Assembly (NCBI GenBank): GCA_021132495.1 | Contig: GCA_021132495.1_4335.1 | DNA: 44,086 nucleotides | Source: a phage | Strand: one strand, 5' to 3' | Part shown: one piece after another, positions 407 to 43,571 of the stretch | Layout: the number at the start of each line of letters is the position of its first letter | Numbering within the stretch: position 1 is the first letter of the stretch | Position numbers and translations under genes: made by a program | The notes under the pieces: generated by a model | What the model was told of the DNA's origin: nothing | Database searches by the model: none | What the model saw: only the letters and a program-made list of their open reading frames with translations

Positions 407-625
407 TTATTTAAAGTAGATAGCAAATTTCTTGTAACCCGCTGGCTCGTTACGAAGTCCTTTACCGTTAGCGAAACGTTGTACGTTAACAAAATCATTT
501 TCATCCATTCCGTCGGTGTCGAACGTAAAGAAGTTGCGCTTGTTCCCGATAATTACGCGCTCTGAGATATCGATGCCGTAAACTTCTTTGATTGCGGAAA
601 CTACGCTTGCGGTCGCTTTGTTCAT
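407..625 (-). CDS. hypothetical protein (72 aa)
   Basis: ORF track; first gene downstream of the minus-strand promoter at 660-688. Confidence 0.55.
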   Translation of the reverse strand: MNKATASVVSAIKEVYGIDISERVIIGNKRNFFTFDTDGMDENDFVNVQRFANGKGLRNEPAGYKKFAIYFK

Positions 626-659
626 TTCTAAATTCCTTATGTCTCGTTCCGATAAGTGA

Positions 660-688
660 ATAGTATCCTATTATGTTGGGGTGTGCAA
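660..688 (-). promoter_or_regulatory. sigma70-like promoter TTGCAC-N17-TACTAT carrying the palindrome AATAG-gata-CTATT
   Basis: Reverse complement of 660-688 reads TTGCAC, 17-nt spacer, TACTAT; same motif as at 23616 and 33233. Confidence 0.45.
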
Positions 689-1104: not shown

Positions 1105-1287
1105 ATGCAGCATTACATGACACAGAATGAAGTGGCTGAACGTATCGGGGTGACACGTCAAACAATTAATAACTGGTTGCGCAGCGGTAAATTCCCTGAT
1201 TGCTGTATTAAGGTTATGGGTCGCCGTTTACCAGGAACATTTGACCGTAATAAAGTTGAAGCATGGATTAAGGAGAACGTGAAATGA
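1105..1287 (+). CDS. small HTH DNA-binding protein (AlpA/MerR-like)
   Basis: RBS caggag before ATG at 1105; motif EVAERIGVTRQTINNWLRSGKFP typical of AlpA/excisionase-type HTH; ORF track start at 1033 judged too far upstream. Confidence 0.6.
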   Translation: MQHYMTQNEVAERIGVTRQTINNWLRSGKFPDCCIKVMGRRLPGTFDRNKVEAWIKENVK

Positions 1288-1496
1288 TTGGGCGTATGGG
1301 TTGTTACTTTGAAAACTGTAAAGTTAAATACCGGTTTAAGTTTGCGCCGGAAATTACTGACAGCGGATTCTATGCGGAAATATGTAAGCCTAATCATTTG
1401 TTGGAACCGACACGCATTATTAAGATGCCAATCGAGGCTTTAAGTAAGTGTCGTTTCTACGCTTCGGAGCGTGCGTGGATTGCGGGCGTTAAGTAA
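1284..1496 (+). CDS. hypothetical protein (70 aa)
   Basis: ORF track; start overlaps the upstream stop. Confidence 0.45.
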   Translation: MIGRMGCYFENCKVKYRFKFAPEITDSGFYAEICKPNHLLEPTRIIKMPIEALSKCRFYASERAWIAGVK

Positions 1497-1564
1497 AAGA
1501 AACCCCAACGCCAGAACGTCGGGGCTAAAGTACAAATCATCAAAGTAAGCATAAGGATTATACA

Positions 1565-1693
1565 ATGACAAAGTTAATAGTTCCACAGCTACGCCGCCAG
1601 AAACACGGCGCTGACTTCTTCGCACCGGTAAAGATGAACCGCGCAATGCGCCGTATGCAGGAAGCCTTAGAACGTGCGGAGAAAAAGAAATGA
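1565..1693 (+). CDS. small basic hypothetical protein (42 aa)
   Basis: Manual ORF with RBS aagga; stop overlaps the ATG of the next gene (ATGA). Confidence 0.3.
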   Translation: MTKLIVPQLRRQKHGADFFAPVKMNRAMRRMQEALERAEKKK

Positions 1694-3942
1694 ATATTGT
1701 TTTTGCAACGCTGCGCAACACATTCGATAAAAACCCTGTAGCGCGTGAGATGCCTCTCGAGCAGTTTGTGGAGTATGTCTGCGATACATCGAAGCGTTTA
1801 TCCGTGGATCCGTCGTGGTCTAAGGAAGAGTACGACGCTGCCAAGATTAAGCAGAAAGCTATTGCGCCTGTTGGGGGTCGCCGTAAAAGCGCTATCCTGG
1901 AAGACAGTGTGGTTAAGTTCGATTTTGACCATCTCAACCGTACTCAGTACCGCGACCTTACCCGCAAATTCAAGAACGCACCGTTCTTCAATATTCTGCA
2001 TACAACGGCATCGCATCAGCATGTGTGTAAAAACGGTGATTACGCCTTCCGCGTTCTGGTTCCGGCTCGCACGCCGTTTAACTCTAACGACGCGTGGATG
2101 GTCCAACGGGCTATTTGTGCAGAGTTAGAAATAGATGAAGCCTTGCGTGACCACTGCACGGAAGACGGCAACCGCCTTATCTATCTACCACATAGAGAGT
2201 CAAAGATAACGGTTACAGAAGGGCGTGTTATCCGTGCCGAGCGGTACATCAAGAAAGCCGAAGAGATGGGGTTGAGTAAACGTGAAGTTAAGACACTTGC
2301 CGCCGATGAGTATGGGCTTAACGCTGATATAGCGCATTTCTGCGAAGCCGAGCTTGGCCTTGACGCTTTATCTTCCGGGCGCGGGTACGAAGTCCCATGC
2401 CCTAACGAACATCTGCATACAGGCAAAGGCTCCACAAGCATCATGCTTGATGGTAAAGAAGTGCGCTTTGTGTGCCAGCATACAAACAACGGCGCTTGCA
2501 CCGAGCTTAACCGCCGACAGCATTTGGCCCTGCGTATGTGCGGCCTGCCAGACGAGCTTAACGTAGACAAGCAACCTATCAGTATTAACAGCATTCGTGC
2601 GGCTCTGCCTGATTTACCGGATGAAGAGATTGAAGAACTGCACCGCACAGAGAACGAGGAGCCTGTAACTTGCACGCTGGAAGACCTTGAAGAAGAGGAC
2701 GAGTTACCAGAACCGGTAAAGGCTGATTTCGTCGTTGAGGGGTACATGCCGTCGGATTGTATCTGGGATATTGTCGGGGAATCCGGCACGTACAAATCAT
2801 TCTATACGCTGGGGATGATGTACCTGAGCGCCGCCGGGTACCGGTTTGCGGGGGCTGACACCCAACGTTGCCACCATTTCTATATTGACGGCGAGGGTGG
2901 TGCAGCTACACGAACACGTATTGATGCACTCGCGGCTAAATATGGCGAGGAAGGTAAAGATTATGTACATGTCATCGATATGGGCGAAATACTCGCTACG
3001 CATGGTGATAAAAAAATTCCAGCTCTAATCCGCAGGATGCGCGAAACCGCAGGGGATGAACCTATTGGCATGGTTGCCTTCGACACCCTTAACCAGACGC
3101 TGGCCCTGACGATTGATAAGTTCGACGAGAACAGTTCATCAACGGCAATCGGTATGGGTAAAGTTATCGCCATCCTGAAAGAAGTGCGCGATGCAACTAA
3201 AGCCGCTGTCGGTGTCGTTCACCATACTCCGAAGGGCGGAAAGAAAGCCCGCGGCAGTGGAGCATTGTATGCGGGTGTCGACGTGGAACTGACAATCGAA
3301 CGCGCTACCGACCGTCAGATAAACGTATACCACTCTAAATTTAAGCACGGTCCTCAACAGAAGACGGTTGGCATGGTACTGGAGTCTGTACAGTTCCGTG
3401 AAGCACCGCCGCCGAAAGAGTACCGCGCGGTTGAGTTCCTCGGTAGCACAGAGGAATACGGCACAATAGTAAACCTCGACCTGCCTGAGCCGCACAAGGC
3501 GCTTGTATTGATGCCGTGGGGCTTCGAGCCATTCAAGACCGACGAGGAGAAAGAGAGGGGAGAAGGGTTAACTAACGAAGGTAAACAAAATGTACGTAAA
3601 ACCATAGAGAACGCCGTCAACAGTTCCGAGGCCACGATACTCGCGGCGTTTGAACTGGCGGAGGGGACCTACAACGGCAACGAGGGCATCACGGTATCCG
3701 CAGCGAATAAGCTCGCGCAGTCTGACCCCAACGCAAAGGCGTTTAACTCCAAAGAAGCCATAGAACGCGGGAAGATTAAGAAAATGGTTGAGGCTGGGTA
3801 TCTTGTTCCGGGTACTGACGAAAACAATCAGATAATCCCAGGCCGTTACAGACTGAACACCATGATAACAGATAACAAGATTCCGAAGACAATATACGAA
3901 CCGAATGAAATGCTGACAGTGACCGAGGAGGATTTGGAATGA
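1690..3942 (+). CDS. replicative primase-helicase-like protein (RecA/DnaB-type P-loop ATPase, Zn-binding region)
   Basis: 750 aa; Walker A GESGTYKS; Cys/His cluster CPNEHLH...CQHTNNGAC; acidic C-terminus TEEDLE. Confidence 0.6.
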   Translation: MNIVFATLRNTFDKNPVAREMPLEQFVEYVCDTSKRLSVDPSWSKEEYDAAKIKQKAIAPVGGRRKSAILEDSVVKFDFDHLNRTQYRDLTRKFKNAPFFNILHTTASHQHVCKNGDYAFRVLVPARTPFNSNDAWMVQRAICAELEIDEALRDHCTEDGNRLIYLPHRESKITVTEGRVIRAERYIKKAEEMGLSKREVKTLAADEYGLNADIAHFCEAELGLDALSSGRGYEVPCPNEHLHTGKGSTSIMLDGKEVRFVCQHTNNGACTELNRRQHLALRMCGLPDELNVDKQPISINSIRAALPDLPDEEIEELHRTENEEPVTCTLEDLEEEDELPEPVKADFVVEGYMPSDCIWDIVGESGTYKSFYTLGMMYLSAAGYRFAGADTQRCHHFYIDGEGGAATRTRIDALAAKYGEEGKDYVHVIDMGEILATHGDKKIPALIRRMRETAGDEPIGMVAFDTLNQTLALTIDKFDENSSSTAIGMGKVIAILKEVRDATKAAVGVVHHTPKGGKKARGSGALYAGVDVELTIERATDRQINVYHSKFKHGPQQKTVGMVLESVQFREAPPPKEYRAVEFLGSTEEYGTIVNLDLPEPHKALVLMPWGFEPFKTDEEKERGEGLTNEGKQNVRKTIENAVNSSEATILAAFELAEGTYNGNEGITVSAANKLAQSDPNAKAFNSKEAIERGKIKKMVEAGYLVPGTDENNQIIPGRYRLNTMITDNKIPKTIYEPNEMLTVTEEDLE

Positions 3943-4253
3943 ATATTTACGATTTTATAGATAACCCGTTTAAAGCAGTGAAGGCAGGATACCGCCCGTC
4001 ATACCTGACATGTGTTTCCGCTGTAAGCAACAACTGGTGGACTTTTTGTGTGTATGCAGCGGGGATTTTTGCGGAGTTTAAAGACATTTTAGACATGACG
4101 CTGGCAGAGATTATAAAGTGCCTTTTCAAATTAATTATATCGATAACTATTGTTATAAGTTTTCCTGTAAGTGCGTGGTTTCTCGCCTGGATTCAGTACC
4201 TGAACGTGCAACACACTATTAAGAATTTGGAAGAACTCGATAAGTTGCTATAA
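3939..4253 (+). CDS. membrane protein (C-terminal hydrophobic segment)
   Basis: ORF track; ATGA overlap with the upstream gene. Confidence 0.5.
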   Translation: MNIYDFIDNPFKAVKAGYRPSYLTCVSAVSNNWWTFCVYAAGIFAEFKDILDMTLAEIIKCLFKLIISITIVISFPVSAWFLAWIQYLNVQHTIKNLEELDKLL

Positions 4254-4257
4254 AAAG

Positions 4258-4277
4258 AAAGGGGCTTTAAGCCCCTT
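4258..4277. terminator. bidirectional intrinsic terminator (aaggggct-tta-agcccctt)
   Basis: Perfect hairpin between convergent genes 3939..4253 (+) and 4267..4482 (-), A/T flanks. Confidence 0.6.
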
Positions 4278-4482
4278 CACCTAACGCCAGCCACTTGGCG
4301 TCTACTTCCAGAACTTCCGCCAGTTTGAACAGCGTTGCCGGGCGGACGTCCTGAGTTACTCCAAGTGCCAGTTGGTTAATCGCGCCCTGGGAAACGCCGG
4401 TCAGGGCCGCCAAACGGCGCTGGGAGATGCCGAGTTCTTTACGGCGTTGTTCTACACGGATACCTAGTTCAGATGGTTGCAT
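4267..4482 (-). CDS. XRE-family HTH transcriptional regulator (Cro/CI-like)
   Basis: 71 aa; motif ISQRRLAALTGVSQGAINQLALG; RBS aaggag; transcribed divergently from the early operon. Confidence 0.8.
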   Translation of the reverse strand: MQPSELGIRVEQRRKELGISQRRLAALTGVSQGAINQLALGVTQDVRPATLFKLAEVLEVDAKWLALGEGA

Positions 4483-4502
4483 GTCAATTACTCCTTAGTC
4501 AG

Positions 4503-4531
4503 TTGATATGTGAATAGTACCATATTAATTA
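4503..4531 (+). promoter_or_regulatory. weaker promoter-like element TTGATA-N17-TAATTA with palindrome half-site variant (AATAG-tacc-ATATT)
   Basis: In the divergent control region between the XRE gene and the gene at 4604. Confidence 0.35.
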
Positions 4532-4546
4532 TTTTAGAAAAGCCCA

Positions 4547-4575
4547 TTGACATGTGAATAGTTCGCTATTATAGT
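4547..4575 (+). promoter_or_regulatory. sigma70 promoter TTGACA-N17-TATAGT with embedded palindrome AATAG-ttcg-CTATT
   Basis: Consensus -35 and near-consensus -10 at 17-nt spacing, about 30 nt upstream of the gene at 4604. Confidence 0.6.
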
Positions 4576-4603
4576 TAGCCCATACCAAACGAGAGGGGCA
4601 GAT

Positions 4604-4831
4604 ATGAACACAATAACGGGAGCCATAGCTAAAGGTTTTCTAGCAATTTTCGGAGAATCGCAGGAAGTGTGCACAAAACATAAATTTGTACTTTCTTGCG
4701 TAGTCGGGGACGAGTTTGATGGGTTCGATAAACTTGTTGTCTGCGACCATTGCGGGCAAGAAGCTATTCAACACCCAAACGGTAAATTTGAATTAATAGA
4801 CGATAGCCTTACAGAAGGCGACGGCGAGTAA
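4604..4831 (+). CDS. hypothetical Cys-containing protein (possible Zn ribbon)
   Basis: ORF track; motif CDHCGQ. Confidence 0.5.
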   Translation: MNTITGAIAKGFLAIFGESQEVCTKHKFVLSCVVGDEFDGFDKLVVCDHCGQEAIQHPNGKFELIDDSLTEGDGE

Positions 4832-5672: not shown

Positions 5673-6910
5673 AACTAAAAGAACGAGGCGGCAATAATGA
5701 TGTACACGCCTTACTGTCACCGTCAGGCGCTAAAAAGTGGCTGTCATGCGCTGCGTCGCTGGCGTGTGAAAAAGATATCCCTAACACGTCGGGTAAAGCC
5801 GCTGTACTAGGAACCGCCATGCACACCATAGCTGAGGTCCATCTCAACGCCTATATACGCGGCACTGCGTTGCCGTTAGAGCGTGAAGTCGGCGCTTACG
5901 TACTGGATGAAGGCAAAGGTCAGATTAAGGCGCTAATCAGCCTGATGAAAGGCGCGGTACTGATTACGGCGGACATGATTGAGCAGGTGCGCAAGTACAC
6001 CGACTACTGCAAAGCGATTATAGACGTAGCGACTTACGCCAAGCTGGAAATGCGTGTCAATCTTACTGAGGTATTGCATCCGGGGTATGAAGGCGTTGAG
6101 ACGTTCGGAACCGCTGACCTCGTTGCTGTCCAGGAACTGGCAAACACCGACGAGCACATGCTCATTATCGGCGACCTGAAAACCGGGCGGCATCGCGTCG
6201 AAGCGAAAGAAAACAAGCAGCTTATGCTTTACGCTCTCGGTGTTTATCGTCGACTCAAGAGACGTTATAACATAACAACCGTTCGTCTGGTCATCTTCCA
6301 GCCTTACGCTGGGGGTGCGACAGAGTGGGACATCTCGGTTGAAGGACTGGAACTGTTCGCTAAGTTCGCACAGAAACGCGCGCTGTTAGCGCTTGATGCG
6401 TATTTCCGTGGCAAGAAGAACCTGAAAGCGTCGGACTTCAAGCCATCGGTAGATGGTTGTCAGTGGTGCCGGTTCTCTGAACAATGCGCTGCGCGTACAA
6501 AGACGGTTAATTCTGTACTGGCGGAAGAACTGGAAGACGACTTTGTGCTGGAACTGACGCCGGAGCAACTCGTAGCTGAGTATGAGAAGTTGCCGCTGTT
6601 GCGCCAGCACATCGACAAGGTTGAGAAAGCTATGGCGGCCGCGTTGCATTCAGGTAAGAAAGTTCCTGGTTACAAGTTGGTTGAAGGCCGCCCGGGCAAT
6701 CGTGCATGGAAAGACGCGGAGAAAGTAACAGAACTCTACGGCGACAAGCTGACTAAAGAAGTGCTCATGTCACCTACCGAAGCTGTTAAAGTCATACCGG
6801 AAGAAGAACTGAAAGACTTCATTACCCGTAAGCCAGGCGCACCATGTGTCGCAACGGCAGACGACAAACGTCCTGAGTGGAATCAGGTAACAGAGGAGGA
6901 TTTGGAATGA
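5669..6910 (+). CDS. PD-(D/E)XK exonuclease, Cas4/RecB-like, with C-terminal Cys cluster
   Basis: Motif GDLKTGRHRVEAKENKQLMLYAL (D..K..Q..Y); CQWCRFSEQC; start moved to ATG 5669 after RBS gggag; acidic C-terminus TEEDLE. Confidence 0.7.
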   Translation: MKLKERGGNNDVHALLSPSGAKKWLSCAASLACEKDIPNTSGKAAVLGTAMHTIAEVHLNAYIRGTALPLEREVGAYVLDEGKGQIKALISLMKGAVLITADMIEQVRKYTDYCKAIIDVATYAKLEMRVNLTEVLHPGYEGVETFGTADLVAVQELANTDEHMLIIGDLKTGRHRVEAKENKQLMLYALGVYRRLKRRYNITTVRLVIFQPYAGGATEWDISVEGLELFAKFAQKRALLALDAYFRGKKNLKASDFKPSVDGCQWCRFSEQCAARTKTVNSVLAEELEDDFVLELTPEQLVAEYEKLPLLRQHIDKVEKAMAAALHSGKKVPGYKLVEGRPGNRAWKDAEKVTELYGDKLTKEVLMSPTEAVKVIPEEELKDFITRKPGAPCVATADDKRPEWNQVTEEDLE

Positions 6911-7110
6911 TTCAAGTAAATGAAATGCCCACAGATAAAGATTTTGTGATGATATGGCGCTGGGGCGGTTATATCCATTCGGAATCGTTTACGTTCCTGA
7001 ACGGCACGATGGTGCGATACAACCATGTGGAGGATGAATTCGAACCCGTTGATATGAATGATTTCGAGAACATAGTCCGTATTGCGAAATTTTATTTGAC
7101 ACCTGAATAG
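6907..7110 (+). CDS. hypothetical protein (67 aa)
   Basis: ATG at 6907 after RBS gaggagga, overlapping the upstream stop. Confidence 0.45.
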   Translation: MIQVNEMPTDKDFVMIWRWGGYIHSESFTFLNGTMVRYNHVEDEFEPVDMNDFENIVRIAKFYLTPE

Positions 7111-7124
7111 TTAGCTATTATAGT
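7096..7124 (+). promoter_or_regulatory. sigma70 promoter TTGACA-N17-TATAGT with embedded palindrome AATAG-ttag-CTATT
   Basis: Same architecture as 4547-4575; upstream of the gene at 7184. Confidence 0.6.
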
Positions 7125-11516: not shown

Positions 11517-11793
11517 AGAGGGCCGCGTACAGAAATACGCAAAAGAGCGATTCGAGGCCATCGGGGGCCTCGTCCGTAAACTGTCTTATGAGGGGCGCTC
11601 CGGCGCTCCCGACCTGCTGGTAATTCTCCCGGGCGGCATCGTCTGGTTCGTCGAGGTGAAGAAAGACGAAAGCACGAAGCCTGACCCACACCAGTTACGA
11701 GAGCATGAGCGGATGCGTAAACGTGGTGCGAATGTTTTTGTCGTCGGGTCGTTCAAACAGGTTGACGACCTAATAGCGAACTATTATAGTTAG
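11506..11793 (+). CDS. VRR-NUC domain nuclease
   Basis: 95 aa; PDLLVI...VWFVEVKKDESTKPDPHQ consistent with the VRR-NUC D/E-K core. Confidence 0.6.
   Translation: MATKEGRVQKYAKERFEAIGGLVRKLSYEGRSGAPDLLVILPGGIVWFVEVKKDESTKPDPHQLREHERMRKRGANVFVVGSFKQVDDLIANYYS
11762..11790 (+). promoter_or_regulatory. sigma70 promoter TTGACG-N17-TATAGT with embedded palindrome AATAG-cgaa-CTATT
   Basis: Same architecture as 4547 and 7096; overlaps the 3' end of the VRR-NUC gene. Confidence 0.55.
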
Positions 11794-11823
11794 CCCTACA
11801 CCAACAATATAAGGAATTGATAG

Positions 11824-23615: not shown

Positions 23616-23644
23616 TTGCACACCCCAATATAATAGTGTACTAT
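23616..23644 (+). promoter_or_regulatory. sigma70-like promoter TTGCAC-N17-TACTAT with palindrome AATAG-tgta-CTATT
   Basis: Near-identical to motifs at 660-688 (minus) and 33233-33261; about 40 nt upstream of the cassette. Confidence 0.5.
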
Positions 23645-23685
23645 TCACTTACACCAACGATGTTATCCCAAACAGGAGCTACACC

Positions 23686-32681: not shown

Positions 32682-32913
32682 GGGTAATCACATCTGATTT
32701 CGTCTTGCCTTCGTTGTCGGCGGCGGCGGCCTTTGATTCGTCCTGCTGCTGCCGTTGTGTTTTCTTAGCTAACTCAGCCTGTGCTTTTTGCTGTTGCTGC
32801 GAAACGAGATTAGCGCGGCCTTCGTGCCAGCCGCTGCGGTACTGATAAATGCCGTGTGTGTAAGCCAGGATGATGAAACATGCTCCTGCTACGACGGTTG
32901 CTTTAAGATTCAT
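32527..32913 (-). CDS. i-spanin (Rz-like)
   Basis: N-terminal TM segment, Gln/Ala-rich helical periplasmic domain, o-spanin ORF overlapping its 3' part. Confidence 0.6.
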   Translation of the reverse strand: MNLKATVVAGACFIILAYTHGIYQYRSGWHEGRANLVSQQQQKAQAELAKKTQRQQQDESKAAAADNEGKTKSDVITREVVKYIKTPGRSVCTFDDARVLLKSHAVANANSITGYDDDAASVQTGSAK

Positions 32914-33023
32914 GTTTCCCCTTTCTCGATAAGTAAAGCCCTGCCTTAAAGCAGGGCGCTAGTCCTTATCATTTAAACATAGAAACGGCGTAATCTCAGT
33001 AAACCAGTTACTTTTTACACAAG

Positions 33024-33167
33024 CAATAGAGTATGGCCCTTCCGAACGCGTCAGCGTAACTACACTCAGGACTTACGTCCCGCTCCGTTACCTGCCCGCG
33101 CCGCGGTCGCTTGTTCATACTTCACAAGCTCAGGTGGAGCTTATCACATTTTTAGTGAAAAGTCAAC
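33024..33167. repeat. copy B of the ~145-bp repeated intergenic element
   Basis: Aligned by hand to 855-998; same hairpin aagctc-aggtg-gagctt at 33126-33142. Confidence 0.8.
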
Positions 33168-33232
33168 TATTCGAATAGTTTATTCCAACATTTACAATTC
33201 GGTGGAATAACTGGAATACGTAAATAAATAGT

Positions 33233-33261
33233 TTGCGCACCCCAATATAATAGGGTACTAT
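33233..33261 (+). promoter_or_regulatory. sigma70-like promoter TTGCGC-N17-TACTAT with palindrome AATAG-ggta-CTATT
   Basis: Same motif family as 23616-23644; upstream of the lipoprotein gene. Confidence 0.5.
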
Positions 33262-33386
33262 TCATTCTATCGAACCGGGGAGGCCGTCACGTTAGTCGTT
33301 ATTTCAGTAGTAATTGCAGTTGATGCGGTGATGTTTCTTTGGGCTTGTAGTGGTATTGGTGACATTGACACGGGTAATGGTGAACT

Positions 33387-34289: not shown

Positions 34290-35365
34290 TATTCCCCTTT
34301 CAGATAATCAGCAACACGTTTATCGAGTTCCGCCATCTGCTTAAGCGTGAGCGGATTCCCGAAACCATCTACAGATATTACGCGAAACTCTTCCGGCGAT
34401 ATACCGCTGTTACGGAAAATCTTACCTCGCACCGGGCCGAGCGCCTGGTCCTGAAACCACGCCGGTTGTTGTTTAAGGAACTCGTAGTAAGTGGTGTCTG
34501 CGCTTACCTGAGTGCCACCTTCCGCGCCTTTAGCCGCGCGTTTTGCGCCTTTATCGAGGAAGTCGAACTCTGAACTGATTACCGGGGCCGTGGTGCTTCG
34601 ACAATTCGGATGGGCTGGCGGCATCGGACCTTTACCGATTTCCCACGTCATTCCGTCTCTGGCCCTGCAAATCGTGCTGGTACGGCTGTCCAAAGTTGAC
34701 ACCCACTCATATTTCTCGATGATGTCGTCGTTCTGGCGGTACGTCTCGTTACGGGCCTCGTTGGATACGTGGGACAGCGCGGTGCGGATTACCGTAGTCG
34801 CGTTACGTTCTGAGATGTCGGCTAGTCCACCAGCGCCAACAACATTCTTAACAATCTGCCGTGTGGTTTGACCTTGCACAAAGCCCATCTTAACTCCAGT
34901 TACAAGACGTGCTACTTCCGTTTCACCCCATCCAGACATCAGCTTGGTGAAATCAACGGGCTTGTCGCTCAATGATAATGGTTGAAACTCGGCAGCGGCC
35001 CATACCTGCTCAGCGGTAGGCGTAACAAATTCCGCGTCTACGTTGGCGGTCAGTGTCTTTACGTTCCACTCAGCCTCATACGCCGCCAGTTCCTTAAGGT
35101 CTTCTGTCAGCTTTGTCTGCCAGTCGCCCGTAAGCCCCACCAGTGCTTCTTCAAGGTCGCGTAACAATTTATTCAGTCGGGCAGTGCTTCGCCCGTCGTC
35201 ACCGAATAACAGCACCTGCCGTTTGATTTCATCCCTTATCTCCTGAATGAACGGCGTGAGGTCTTTCACTTCACCGGATGCGGTGCGTTGCAGCCATATC
35301 TGGTGGCTGATTAGAGATGTAAGTAAGCTCATAGATAAACCCTGTGGCGCTAAAGTTAATAGCAT
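34289..35365 (-). CDS. head morphogenesis protein (Mu F / SPP1 gp7-like)
   Basis: 358 aa after the portal; conserved-looking segment PAHPNCRST. Confidence 0.65.
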   Translation of the reverse strand: MLLTLAPQGLSMSLLTSLISHQIWLQRTASGEVKDLTPFIQEIRDEIKRQVLLFGDDGRSTARLNKLLRDLEEALVGLTGDWQTKLTEDLKELAAYEAEWNVKTLTANVDAEFVTPTAEQVWAAAEFQPLSLSDKPVDFTKLMSGWGETEVARLVTGVKMGFVQGQTTRQIVKNVVGAGGLADISERNATTVIRTALSHVSNEARNETYRQNDDIIEKYEWVSTLDSRTSTICRARDGMTWEIGKGPMPPAHPNCRSTTAPVISSEFDFLDKGAKRAAKGAEGGTQVSADTTYYEFLKQQPAWFQDQALGPVRGKIFRNSGISPEEFRVISVDGFGNPLTLKQMAELDKRVADYLKGE

Positions 35366-38666: not shown

Positions 38667-38760
38667 AGAATCCCCTTGCATATGCGTCTGACCATCAGAG
38701 CGCACCAGACGCGCCCTACGCGTCTAAAGGGATTATATAAGGGGATTGGGCGGGATGTAC

Positions 38761-38784
38761 AGAAAAGCCCTCCGTAGAGGGCTT
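38761..38784 (-). terminator. intrinsic terminator on the minus strand (agccctc-tacg-gagggct + TTTTCT)
   Basis: Hairpin plus T-tract separating the small-gene block from the packaging genes. Confidence 0.45.
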
Positions 38785-40359: not shown

Positions 40360-40518
40360 TTTCCCAAAAACCCCTTTAGTTTTCAGATTATTGCGATAGA
40401 ACTGCATCACATGTTCATTATGGAAGTTACTCATCTTCTCTACTCCGTTCTCGTTGTCGATGAGGTAAATATAATAGGGTCGTAGATAATAGTCAACTAG
40501 TCATTACAGAAAATAGAT

Positions 40519-43096: not shown

Positions 43097-43125
43097 GTGT
43101 AAATGAATAGTAGCCTATTCTATCT
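43097..43125 (-). promoter_or_regulatory. sigma70-like promoter TTGCAC-N17-TACTAT with palindrome AATAG-gcta-CTATT
   Basis: Reverse complement matches the 660-688 motif including the adjacent gtgtgcaag. Confidence 0.45.
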
Positions 43126-43249: not shown

Positions 43250-43278
43250 AAGTCACAAAGCCAAATAGCAACCTATTG

Positions 43279-43374
43279 ACCTGTTACACCACCTGTTACA
43301 CCACCTGTTACACCACCTGTTACACCACCTGTTACACCACCTGTTACACCACCTGTTACACCACCTGTTACACC
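43279..43374. repeat. tandem array of 8 perfect 12-bp direct repeats (ACCTGTTACACC), with a degenerate partial unit at 43271-43278
   Basis: Counted unit by unit; the array starts at the stop codon of gene 43368..43571 and fills the intergenic region. Confidence 0.95.
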
Positions 43375-43571
43375 GGCGATGGTGGCTCAGGTAACGGCAT
43401 CCAGTGCGTCACGTACTTACCGTAGTGATTCCAAAATGGCTTTCTCTCGTCATCAGGAACTATGTAATAATCGTGCTGCACTGCGTTATTCAACGTTTCA
43501 TACACCAGGAATTCTTTATCAGTACTGCCGTTACCCGGTAACATTTCACTACACTTAATCCACTCGCCCAT
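43368..43571 (-). CDS. DUF551-like small protein, paralogue 1
   Basis: N-terminus MGEWIKCSE and internal THWMPLPEP shared with the adjacent gene. Confidence 0.6.
   Translation of the reverse strand: MGEWIKCSEMLPGNGSTDKEFLVYETLNNAVQHDYYIVPDDERKPFWNHYGKYVTHWMPLPEPPSPV

Follow-up and report, generated by a model that had tools for sequence, protein, structure and literature searches.

The phage regulator examined here is a Cro-like, single-domain XRE protein that, in the reading we favour with moderate confidence, acts as a dimer to repress its own promoter and phage promoters across the genome, and would thus serve as a brake during lytic growth rather than maintain lysogeny. Its candidate operator, the dyad AATAG-N4-CTATT, lies on about 9-12 promoter regions in all gene modules, including nearly all strong sigma70-like promoters. 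Because the dyad is spread over the promoters of all modules, it does not form a private two-operator switch of the lambda type, and, with integrase and partition genes absent, the system probably serves as a brake on transcription throughout the genome and not as a switch for lysogeny.

The window, i.e., the whole stretch of 44,086 nucleotides that was analysed, is a Kagunavirus (Guernseyvirinae) genome from a group of E. coli phages reported as virulent. Nucleotide searches with a 6-kb query matched 475 phage records, 68 of them over at least 80% of the query, and the best match has 96% identity. The 44.5-kb phage SHAK7858 is collinear with the window over 84% of the window length at 92-99.6% identity; its taxonomy line reads Kayfunavirus, which looks like a mislabel. 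An Rfam search of the window gave no match.

A Cro-like regulator and its control region

The earlier note had described the regulator as being of the XRE/Cro-C1 type, and the profiles agree. The protein matches Pfam HTH_3 (PF01381) over residues 11-65 with an E value of 3.9e-13 (49.7 bits, cut-off 23), the HTH_19 and HTH_31 profiles likewise score above their own cut-offs, and its PHROG class is transcriptional repressor or regulator. Among PDB sequences it is most similar to 434 Cro and 434 repressor, with E values of 5e-6 to 1e-5. In the AF2 model (pLDDT 77.6), helices at residues 5-17, 21-28, 32-39, 48-57 and 62-66 make up the five-helix fold of HTH_3/XRE proteins, with helices 2-3 as the helix-turn-helix. 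Foldseek returned SinR-N, C.AhdI, 434 Cro, 434 repressor and P22 c2 at TM 0.7-0.8; in the structural alignment 434 Cro is 39-40% identical to the regulator, with TM 0.72-0.81. The helix-turn-helix segment ELGxSQRRLA...GVSQGAINQLALGV shows no or almost no variation among Kagunavirus XRE variants down to 77% identity. The nearest phage homologue outside the Guernseyvirinae (44% identity) comes from the Hafnia phage Meifeng, which bears an integrase and in which this homologue forms the Cro half of a CI/Cro pair. The regulator is an XRE/Cro-type element of a known kind.

Like 434 Cro, it belongs to the HTH_3 family, has 71 residues in a five-helix fold, and is a small single domain with neither an oligomerisation nor a cleavage domain. 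Unlike 434 Cro, the first gene of an early operon with replication genes and opposite cI, the regulator gene stands alone, in the opposite orientation to the replication operon. In Cornellvirus VSiA and SE1, by comparison, the XRE gene does have this Cro-like place, at the head of the helicase-primase operon. The features of a CI-type maintenance repressor are absent: the single HTH domain leaves no C-terminal oligomerisation/S24 domain, no Cro-type antagonist is encoded divergently across common operators, and there is neither an integration or partition function among the 40 ORFs scanned nor any prophage occurrence in the genomes searched. The first product after P2 is not an HTH protein, so the regulator has no Cro partner there; among relatives, unrelated genes occupy this position behind the conserved leader. 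Downstream, the regulator gene ends in an intrinsic terminator whose hairpin, a perfect 9-bp inverted repeat (I6), folds at -22.2 kcal/mol (z -2.1), and which also divides it from the convergent helicase-primase operon.

The gap between the regulator and the next plus-strand gene (4483-4603) measures 121 bp, in line with the earlier estimate of about 120 bp for the region from which the regulator and the rightward replication operon diverge. It contains a 25-nt direct repeat (4503-4527 and 4547-4571, 84% identical, 44 bp apart), and inside each copy lies one dyad AATAG-N4-CTATT, in fuller form TGAATAG-N4-CTATTCA. These two dyads, O1 and O2, bear out the claim that the region carries two promoter-embedded palindromes, although the conserved element is not the one proposed. 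The palindrome ATTGACATGTGAAT over the P2 -35 (12/14) was rejected as an operator, since its centre, 4553-4556, is the most variable part of the region and carries an indel. Also rejected was the inverted repeat CATGTCAAT/ATTGACATG (4480-4488 and 4546-4554), which is neither conserved nor enriched.

O2 lies in the spacer of P2, abutting and overlapping its -10. P2 has a predicted start near 4582, followed by a ribosome-binding site, GAGAGGGG, at 4591-4598; in relatives its -35 is invariant and its -10 nearly so, and P2-like paralogous promoters of the same architecture occur at 7096 and 11762. The idea that both copies sit in rightward promoters therefore stands for O2. It does not stand for the first copy, where 'P1' (TTGATA-18-AATTAT) matches the plus-strand consensus at only 9/12 positions and has a -35 that varies (TCGATA, CCGATA, TTTATA); we gave it less weight as a further early promoter. 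The most probable assignment of O1 is to a leftward extended -10 promoter of the regulator itself, here called P_reg and proposed on the model of the class B promoters (TTGCAC-17-TACTAT) found at 659, 23632, 33249 and 43106. The TG and TACTAT of P_reg are invariant across the 36 relatives compared, and the TG exists because of the single O1 mismatch. The predicted start near 4507 would give a leader of about 25 nt. A promoter scan also returned an alternative or additional leftward promoter, whose -35 falls within the hypervariable 4553-4556. With O1 on a minus-strand promoter, the layout would be one operator for each of two back-to-back promoters rather than tandem early promoters.

Conservation of the control region was assessed in the intergenic regions of 36 distinct relatives. 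All 20 half-site positions of O1 and O2 are invariant, as is the TG preceding O2. The O2 centre, by comparison, reads TTCG, TTCA, TTAG, CTAG or TTTG, the O1 centre varies at one position only, and the linker of 2-3 nt between the -35 and O2 varies and carries an indel. The dyad centre is variable also at orthologous sites in other Kagunavirus genomes. Invariant half-sites with a drifting centre and linker are the signature of a dimer site. The operators of 434 and P22 are 14-bp dyads in which two 5-bp half-sites flank a 4-bp centre that is not contacted, and the candidate operator resembles them in its 14-bp dyad, its non-conserved 4-bp centre and its position over promoter elements. The half-sites themselves differ (candidate TGAATAG here, ACAA in 434, TTAAG in P22).

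Table 1. Genes, promoters and dyad copies of the window
Feature	Position	Strand	Basis or remarks
HTH_17 gene, 60 aa, excisionase/MerR/Cox-like	1105..1287	+	Pfam HTH_17 E 1.6e-8; phrog_66
Regulator gene, 71-aa single-domain HTH_3/XRE, 434-Cro-like	4267..4482	-	ATG-started ORF
Intrinsic terminator of regulator gene	4250..4278	-	Terminator scan; hairpin 4258-4278 over stop codon, then U-tract
Regulator ribosome-binding site AAGGAG	4491..4496	-	Read from sequence; 8 nt before ATG at 4482; conserved in relatives
O1, dyad AATAG-TACC-ATATT	4513..4526 (18-bp form 4511-4528)		One mismatch; reads AATAGTACCATATT
P_reg, proposed regulator promoter, extended -10 TGgTACTAT	4514..4522	-	Inference from sequence
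Alternative/additional leftward promoter TTCACA-16-TAAAAT	4558-4553 / 4536-4531	-	Scan, 10/12
P2, TTGACA-17-TATAGT, predicted promoter of replication/recombination operon	4547..4575	+	11/12 consensus match
O2, dyad AATAG-TTCG-CTATT	4557..4570 (18-bp form 4555-4572)		Perfect; reads AATAGTTCGCTATT
First gene after P2, Cys-rich 75-aa protein	4604..4831	+	ORF; no Pfam match; phrog_32657, unknown function
Dyad copy over -10 of leftward class B promoter TTGCAC-17-TACTAT	659..672		Drives 625..407 operon
Dyad copy in spacer of TTGACA-17-TATAGT	7106..7119		Upstream of SSB and DNA polymerase genes
Dyad copy in spacer of TTGACG-17-TATAGT	11772..11785		Upstream of SNF2 helicase and primase genes
Dyad copy overlapping -10 TACTAT	23632..23645		Divergent region, tail-chaperone operon (-) / exonuclease/PNK/kinase operon (+)
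One-mismatch dyad copy	33158-33171		Close to 33249 copy
Dyad copy at TTGCGC-17-TACTAT	33249..33262		0.9-kb gap within head-gene block
One-mismatch dyad copy overlapping -35 of leftward TTGACT-17-TATATT	40488..40501		Mismatch conserved in Jerseyvirus SE2
Dyad copy over -10 of leftward TTGCAC-17-TACTAT promoter	43106..43119		
Perfect dyad copy	43264-43277		No recognisable promoter beside it

A dyad on promoters of all gene modules

The dyad is the most enriched palindrome of the genome. With at most one mismatch, 12 copies occur in the window against 1.26 expected, a number reached in 0 of 100 shuffles; eight of these are perfect, where 0.04 would be expected, and four have one mismatch. Besides the control region, the dyad overlaps a -35, a spacer or a -10 in no fewer than seven other sigma70-type promoters (Table 1), which fall into two classes with this one dyad in common; the class A promoters also have leader sequences in common. 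The dyad takes up three registers with respect to the promoter hexamers (spacer, -10 and -35), which suits a repressor that occludes the promoter but not an activator that depends on geometry. The lambda-like switch layout described in the earlier note is thus right as far as divergent, operator-bearing promoters go, and fails in that the dyad is not private to them. An array of eight tandem 12-bp units (43279-43374), considered as a conserved iteron for HTH_17, was rejected because it is absent from 5 of 5 relatives checked.

In the proposed mechanism, an XRE dimer would bind TGAATAG-N4-CTATTCA through its core. Occupancy of O2 would cover the spacer and the -10 edge of the strong rightward P2, which serves replication and recombination genes, and the weaker O1 would cover the -10 of the regulator's leftward promoter. 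A rising regulator level would then turn off P2 first and the regulator's own synthesis afterwards, which would amount to negative autoregulation. Through the dyads on other promoters, the same protein could exert a dose-dependent, genome-wide brake on host-RNA-polymerase transcription in lytic growth, and would do Cro's job without a CI partner. A dyad in the regulator's own promoter region is as expected for an autoregulated XRE protein. We infer that XRE rather than HTH_17 binds the dyad, and likewise infer the transcription starts, repression as the direction of the effect, and its timing. One point against the brake model is that late-gene expression is hard to explain if every strong promoter is repressed.

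Alternative readings of the dyad and the regulator

The window encodes a second small HTH protein, HTH_17, whose family phrog_66 is described as excisionase and transcriptional regulator. It could itself bind the dyad as a genome-wide regulator, with XRE having some other, probably local, target or being regulated via O1; we consider this, the main rival reading, unlikely, though not far-fetched. The phyletic distribution is consistent with it. Both HTH_17 and the dyad are present in Kagunavirus and Jerseyvirus (HTH_17 is 82% identical in Jerseyvirus SE2). Cornellvirus VSiA and SE1 have neither HTH_17 nor an enriched dyad, despite an XRE homologue (40-43% identity) at the same divergent position and despite homologous promoters, those orthologous to the 7106 site having no left half-site. 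In these sequences, dyad presence follows HTH_17 at least as closely as it follows XRE. The XRE recognition helices add to this: they read SQGAINQL in Kagunavirus, SQSLITHL in Jerseyvirus and TQSAISHL in Cornellvirus, so that the two genera with the dyad differ at 4 of 8 positions, and the Jerseyvirus helix is nearer to that of Cornellvirus than to that of Kagunavirus, yet the AATAG core is common to Jerseyvirus and Kagunavirus. In Jerseyvirus, degeneracy is greater at the two sites adjoining XRE, which read AATAG-N4-CGATT and AATAG-N4-GTAAT. No full dyad lies on the candidate HTH_17 promoter, and the protein could therefore come first and then act on all the other promoters; MerR-type proteins, which bind dyads in promoter spacers, offer a precedent.

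Against this, four Kagunavirus genomes in which the HTH_17 helix reads SPMTLNRW or STMTLNRW instead of TRQTINNW retain the same TGAATAG operators down to the TG flank. That flank changes in step with the XRE type, from TG-AATAG in Kagunavirus to T-AATAG in 6/6 half-sites of SE2. The 5-4-5 format of the dyad matches 434/P22-type HTH_3 dimers, its three registers speak against MerR-like remodelling of the spacer, and small excisionase/Cox-like HTH_17 proteins are typically direct-repeat binders or monomers. AlpA, for instance, is a much larger protein that, as a monomer, recognises a non-palindromic element of 6 bp and contacts DNA through residues 128-142 (PMC9371919). The same comparison led us to reject AlpA/Q-like antitermination by HTH_17: at 60 residues it is too small, and the element is a dyad in three registers, as opposed to AlpA, a larger protein with a segment that binds the RNA exit channel, which acts as a monomer on a short non-palindromic element at fixed geometry (PMC9371919). 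Searches for independent XRE/HTH_17 contexts in IMG/VR, a 5.8-billion-protein database and GTDB returned only Kagunavirus/Jerseyvirus-type contigs or homologues of at most 51% identity. In RNA-seq of the Kagunavirus K1B4, gene 008 ('Helix-turn-helix domain') is early and gene 004 ('specific DNA binding') is middle; neither can be assigned to XRE or HTH_17.

It is improbable, in our view, that the regulator is instead a true immunity repressor able to silence the whole genome, with the phage kept in some cells in a non-integrated carrier or pseudolysogenic state, as an episome that has no partition system of its own. One protein could in principle silence the genome, since operators lie on nearly all strong promoters. 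The position of the gene is CI-like (divergent, alone, with its own terminator), and a superinfection-immunity gene is annotated in relatives. For Jerseyvirus SGP-C, one paper reports turbid bull's-eye plaques, immune clones that release phage and possibly episomal DNA, and designates its XRE and HTH_17 genes the lysogeny module (PMC8790156). This published claim of lysogens in the sister genus, an outcome that the earlier note would count against its own view, is a weak one. The phage-gene PCR on surviving colonies and the read coverage on which it is based do not separate lysogeny from a carrier culture.

For Kagunavirus itself, the absence of recombinase and partition genes and of prophage copies speaks against classical lysogeny. 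The earlier note had found no integrase, recombinase or partition gene and had proposed a profile search as a check. Pfam scans of 40 ORFs of the window, including every plausible ORF of at least 120 aa, returned no integrase, recombinase, resolvase or ParAB, and no Peptidase_S24 or CI-type cleavage domain; the annotation of relatives, which lists no integration or partition genes, agrees. The 13-kb module has no megablast match in 5,426 complete E. coli genomes or in the 72,556 plasmids of PLSDB, and the regulator has no close homologue in 185,579 species-representative genomes (GTDB). Together with the lack of an oligomerisation or RecA-cleavable domain in the regulator and of a Cro-type antagonist, these results argue against an immunity repressor, as do the virulence and rapid lysis reported for Kagunavirus isolates (PMC9787291, PMC12919940). 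The preference of the earlier note for a role in the lytic cycle over one in lysogeny is upheld on the same grounds: no recombinase or ParAB, no prophage or plasmid copies, and a group described as virulent. There is an outside chance that a whole-genome off-switch lets this virulent siphovirus, with neither integrase nor partition, fall silent in some of the cells it infects and persist there in a reversible carrier state; if true, it would account for the lysogen-like clones of SGP-C.

That the dyad has no dedicated binder, being a signature of promoter duplication or of overlapping divergent -10s while XRE has its target elsewhere (e.g., host genes), is very improbable: the right half CTATT does overlap -10-like hexamers (CTATTATAGT on one strand, TACTATT on the other) and is kept even in Cornellvirus promoters without the dyad, and the common leaders of class A promoters do indicate duplication, but the left half-site has no promoter role in class A and is nevertheless invariant while its spacer neighbours and the centre drift, the dyad occurs in three registers and once, at 43264, without a recognisable promoter, and the enrichment of perfect copies is specific to the dyad spacing.

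Relation to known systems and implications

The brake reading finds partial counterparts in several known systems. As in the OR region of lambdoid CI/Cro switches, back-to-back promoters lie under operators and the regulator diverges from replication genes, and the weaker operator on the regulator's own promoter recalls OR3 at PRM. Unlike in OR, there are two operators only, with centres separated by 44-45 bp, and the regulator lacks a cooperativity domain; in addition, there is no second regulator, no integrase/excisionase pair and no prophage copy, and the operator is found genome-wide. From 434 and P22 the system differs in having single operators over about 9-12 promoter regions instead of threes at two sites. 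The closest precedent for a role in timing, as opposed to maintenance, is given by the C proteins (C.AhdI, C.BclI), XRE dimers of this fold, 70-80 aa in length, that rank among the top structural matches and use dyads in their own promoter region for autoregulated timing. Unlike C proteins, however, the regulator has no adjoining restriction-modification genes, and C-boxes (GACT...AGTC) come in neighbouring pairs directly ahead of the C gene, in contrast to the dyads of the window, which lie 44 bp apart and on many other promoters as well.

Jerseyvirus SE2, a relative of SGP-C, has the same gene order and dyad core as the window, with XRE about 48% and HTH_17 about 82% identical. In the SGP-C paper, the CI/Cro roles come from HHpred matches and the behaviour is taken to be temperate, and the parts consulted make no mention of operators or of their genome-wide spread (PMC8790156).

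These distinctions have practical consequences, because phages of Kagunavirus and Jerseyvirus are widely proposed for therapy and biocontrol. Genome records name the regulator gene variously as 'repressor', 'DicA', 'cro' or 'hypothetical'. In some papers a repressor is said to be absent, and one paper calls a relative temperate from the regulator gene. A Cro-like single domain, a candidate operator on most promoters, and the absence of any recombinase, partition gene or prophage copy put the safety classification of these phages on better ground. The map of promoters and operators also provides a model, open to experiment, of how gene expression may be timed in a small phage that relies on the RNA polymerase of its host and is in use as a synthetic-biology chassis.

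Layout of the control region

Because the rightward neighbour gene (+) begins at 4604, the control region comprises 121 bp (4483-4603). It holds a 25-nt direct repeat with copies 44 bp apart, the second of which forms P2, the rightward promoter of the replication operon. The corresponding stretch was extracted from 37 related IMG/VR contigs, yielding 36 distinct sequences, the window's own included. The P2 -35 element and both copies of a dyad, O1 and O2, are invariant in this set, and only one sequence has a substitution in the P2 -10, at one position. All 20 half-site positions of O1 and O2 are fixed, whereas O2 has a variable 4-nt centre (TTCG, TTCA, TTAG, CTAG, TTTG) and the linker of 2-3 bases between the P2 -35 and O2 is hypervariable, with an indel. 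Fixed half-sites around a drifting centre are the classic signature of a site bound by a dimeric protein. The TG preceding the left half-site is also invariant, suggesting an 18-bp site, TGAATAG-N4-CTATTCA. The same pattern rules out the palindrome over the P2 -35 (ATTGACATGTGAAT) as the operator; the conserved element is the AATAG-N4-CTATT dyad.

Read on the minus strand, O1 is AATA-TG-G-TACTAT-T and contains a candidate extended -10 element for P_reg, the proposed leftward promoter of the regulator, approximately 25 nt upstream of a good RBS (AAGGAG, 4496-4491) and the regulator ATG. Its TG originates exactly from the single mismatch that weakens the O1 dyad. Both the TG and TACTAT are invariant (36/36 sequences), and the two centre variants seen alter only the intervening base. 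The plus-strand reading at this copy, P1 (TTGATA-18-AATTAT), matches at only 9 of 12 positions, and its -35 varies among relatives. An invariant minus-strand element set against a weak, variable P1 points to P_reg/O1 (leftward) and P2/O2 (rightward) back to back, and two such putative promoters with one operator each would be the most economical layout. Thus, of the two promoter-embedded copies previously described, the second stands as P2, but the first most probably belongs to a minus-strand extended -10 rather than to a rightward promoter. A second leftward promoter, TTCACA-16-TAAAAT, is possible from the promoter scan.

The first gene past the conserved P2 leader (window 4604-4831) is a mosaic hot spot. 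It encodes a 75-aa Cys-rich protein here; in the relatives L002-L038 there are several unrelated small ORFs, or the 166-aa gene follows directly.

Positions of the regulator gene, its control elements and the dyad-bearing promoters in the window
Feature	Position	Strand	Description
Regulator ORF	4267-4482	-	71 aa
Intrinsic terminator of regulator, canonical	4258-4278 (hairpin)		stop codon inside hairpin
O1	4513-4526		AATAG-N4-ATATT
P_reg (candidate)	4522 to 4514	-	extended -10, TGnTACTAT
O2	4557-4570		AATAG-N4-CTATT
P2	second repeat copy	+	TTGACA-17-TATAGT; near-consensus sigma70, 11/12
Class A promoters	4557, 7106, 11772	rightward	TTGACA-N2-3-TG-AATAGnnnnCTATT-ATAGT; dyad in spacer; into replication genes
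Class B promoters	659, 23632, 33249, 43106		TTGCAC-17-TACTAT; dyad over -10
Third register	40488		dyad over -35 of TTGACT-17-TATATT

Distribution of the dyad across the genome

With at most one mismatch, the dyad is present in 12 copies in the window (1.26 expected), a count reached in 0 of 100 shuffles; eight copies are perfect (0.04 expected), and no other palindrome of its class comes close to this enrichment. The copies sit in three kinds of promoter context (see table), and P_reg at O1 would count as class B. The earlier picture of a lambda-like, two-operator switch confined to one region therefore does not hold. Ten sigma70-like matches of at least 10/12 were identified in the genome, and the non-coding ones all bear the dyad except one at 38761, upstream of the small terminase gene. 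This promoter, TGTACA-18-TATAAT (38732-38761 (-)), is a candidate regulator-insensitive late promoter. Because the dyad takes three registers relative to the hexamers, promoter occlusion by a repressor fits better than an activator or antiterminator that needs a set geometry. The literature searched yielded no account of this operator network.

Other repeated elements were also observed. At 43279-43374, a 12-bp unit (ACCTGTTACACC) is repeated eight times in perfect tandem; this array begins at the stop codon of an ORF (43368..43571 (-)) and adjoins a perfect dyad (43264-43277). It is absent from SHAK7858 (the closest relative), LM02P1, SE2 (Jerseyvirus), SE1 and VSiA (Cornellvirus) and, given its absence from these five relatives, is strain-specific. 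A 23-nt element, CTCAGGTGGAGCTTA(G/T)CACATTT, lies at 960-982 and 33129-33151 (both +), where chance would give none: the first lies in the long leader of HTH_17, a second small HTH gene (1105-1287 (+)), and the other is beside dyads in a 0.9-kb gap inside the head-gene block. Predicted 5' leaders past class A and B promoters carry the motif (C/T)ACCAA(A)C (4576-4596, 11791-11810, 23650-23665, and orthologues in L043, L044 (SE1) and L045 (VSiA)), which is also present in the dyad-less Cornellvirus and SE1 and could be an RNA-level or a second DNA-level signal.

The regulator and candidate dyad-binding proteins

The regulator matches Pfam HTH_3 (E = 3.9e-13, well over the curated cut-off) and PHROG transcriptional repressor/regulator families. 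The Cro/CI-type regulator beside a repeated promoter-embedded element reported earlier is real, and the observation is statistically solid. The protein's length equals that of phage 434 Cro, and its best sequence matches among solved structures are dh434 (a variant of the 434 repressor DNA-binding domain), 434 Cro and the 434 repressor DNA-binding domain, then P22 c2. An AlphaFold model (pLDDT 77.6) has a five-helix XRE fold and superposes on SinR-N, C.AhdI, 434 Cro (39-40% identity), 434 repressor and P22 c2 with TM of about 0.7-0.8. Beyond the subfamily, the closest homologue (44% identity) comes from a Hafnia phage that carries an integrase, where it is the Cro partner of a CI/Cro pair. Many GenBank relatives already annotate the gene as repressor, DicA or cro. 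Across databases the naming is inconsistent, extending to hypothetical or none; the record of the closest relative (OR594183.1) contains an identical regulator at 32743-32955 but annotates a 96-bp opposite-strand ORF instead, and its taxonomy line reads Autographiviridae/Kayfunavirus, though the genome is Kagunavirus-like.

The weak link of this account is the XRE protein as dyad binder, which, on the evidence for and against it, we consider somewhat better than an even bet. Several observations argue for it: (i) The 434 Cro, 434 repressor and P22 c2 family binds 14-18-bp dyads with an uncontacted centre, exactly the kind of dyad seen here. (ii) Two dyads flank the gene's own promoter region, as expected under autoregulation. 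(iii) The helix-turn-helix segment stays essentially invariant in every Kagunavirus variant, even where overall identity falls to 77%. (iv) The operator flank changes in step with XRE type, from TG-AATAG in Kagunavirus to T-AATAG in Jerseyvirus SE2. (v) Four Kagunavirus genomes with a clearly different HTH_17 recognition helix (SPMTLNRW or STMTLNRW rather than TRQTINNW) keep identical operators, TG flank included. However, VSiA and SE1 retain an XRE homologue (40-43% identity) in the same divergent position with homologous promoters, and neither genome has an enriched dyad; their orthologous SSB promoter is ATTAT-TAAA-CTATT, so only the -10-linked right half-site is ancestral. The Jerseyvirus XRE recognition helix is also nearer that of Cornellvirus than that of Kagunavirus, yet the AATAG core is common to Jerseyvirus and Kagunavirus.

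VSiA and SE1 also lack the HTH_17 protein (60 aa, 82% identical between Kagunavirus and Jerseyvirus), and this joint absence of protein and dyad, despite the retained XRE homologue, is what commends HTH_17 as the binder instead; the unchanged operators in (v) count against it, and we judge it an unlikely candidate. AlpA/Q-like antitermination by HTH_17 is unlikely as well, since AlpA has more than twice the size and, as described in PMC9371919, acts as a monomer on a non-palindromic 6-bp element in fixed geometry.

Between the leftward operon (625..407) and HTH_17 lies a 480-bp gene-free stretch (626-1104) with a long GC-rich hairpin (approximately 727-790); an Rfam search of this stretch gave no match. 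A candidate HTH_17 promoter without a dyad, TTGCTT-17-TATACT, is located directly upstream of 1105. In SE1 (6781-7002) and VSiA (34354-34569) the XRE gene heads a co-oriented operon running into the helicase-primase gene; Kagunavirus and Jerseyvirus have the helicase-primase block in inverted orientation, with HTH_17 at its head, converging on a solitary XRE gene at a shared hairpin (window 1105-4482). The dyad at about eight promoters arises in the same lineage as the inverted block; either the regulon may have expanded in this lineage or a new regulator may have come with the rearrangement.

Lifestyle and a proposed timing circuit

A 6-kb query around the regulatory region matched 475 phage records (top match 96% identical), nearly all Escherichia Kagunavirus or Salmonella Jerseyvirus (Guernseyvirinae). 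The complete SHAK7858 genome (44.5 kb) is collinear with 84% of the window at 92-99.6% identity; given this collinearity and the relatives' matches, the window is an essentially complete Kagunavirus genome. Kagunavirus phages are described as virulent (PMC9787291, PMC12919940) siphoviruses of 41-45 kb.

Pfam scans of 40 ORFs, with all plausible ones of 120 aa or more among them, identified replication, recombination-nuclease, nucleotide-kinase, lysis, packaging, head and tail domains but no Phage_integrase, resolvase/recombinase, ParA/ParB or Peptidase_S24 domain, bearing out the earlier statement that integrase, recombinase and partition genes are absent. This fits the PHROG-based annotation of the closest relative, in which only the HTH_17 protein is labelled 'integration and excision'. 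When the 13-kb regulatory and replication module was used as a megablast query, neither the chromosomes and plasmids of 5,426 complete E. coli genomes nor 72,556 PLSDB plasmids gave a match. No regulator homologue above 51% identity was found in 185,579 species (one genome each), and in a large protein database copies occur solely on phage-like contigs of about 30-45 kb or short fragments. Lytic timing rather than lysogeny, as first proposed, is broadly right, although the operator is genome-wide and the XRE protein is its inferred ligand. Pseudolysogeny, to which we assign a low probability, is kept alive by a paper on Jerseyvirus SGP-C whose authors claim that plaques are turbid, that there are immune clones which release phage and that the genome may be episomal, and who regard XRE plus HTH_17 as a lysogeny module (PMC8790156); as presented there, the data fit lysogeny and carrier culture alike.

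In the circuit we propose, a weak extended -10 promoter would drive regulator synthesis, and a regulator dimer would bind the perfect dyad O2 and block P2; at higher concentration the imperfect O1 would be occupied, limiting the regulator's own synthesis. At the other dyads it would lower transcription by the host polymerase from further operons, among them the early-left, replication and nucleotide-metabolism ones, and differences between operators in their centres and flanks could set graded affinities and, with them, the timing, as in phage 434. Late genes might escape by way of the dyad-less promoter that precedes the small terminase gene, by read-through, or from weak opposite-strand promoters at class B sites. 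The closest functional analogies are lambda or 434 Cro acting alone, or the C-proteins of restriction-modification systems, which run autoregulatory timing circuits and are also among the best structural matches. With no lysogeny domains, no prophage or plasmid copies and a Cro as its closest outside homologue, the regulator gene has the look of a Cro-type domain kept in a phage with neither CI nor integrase nor a prophage state.
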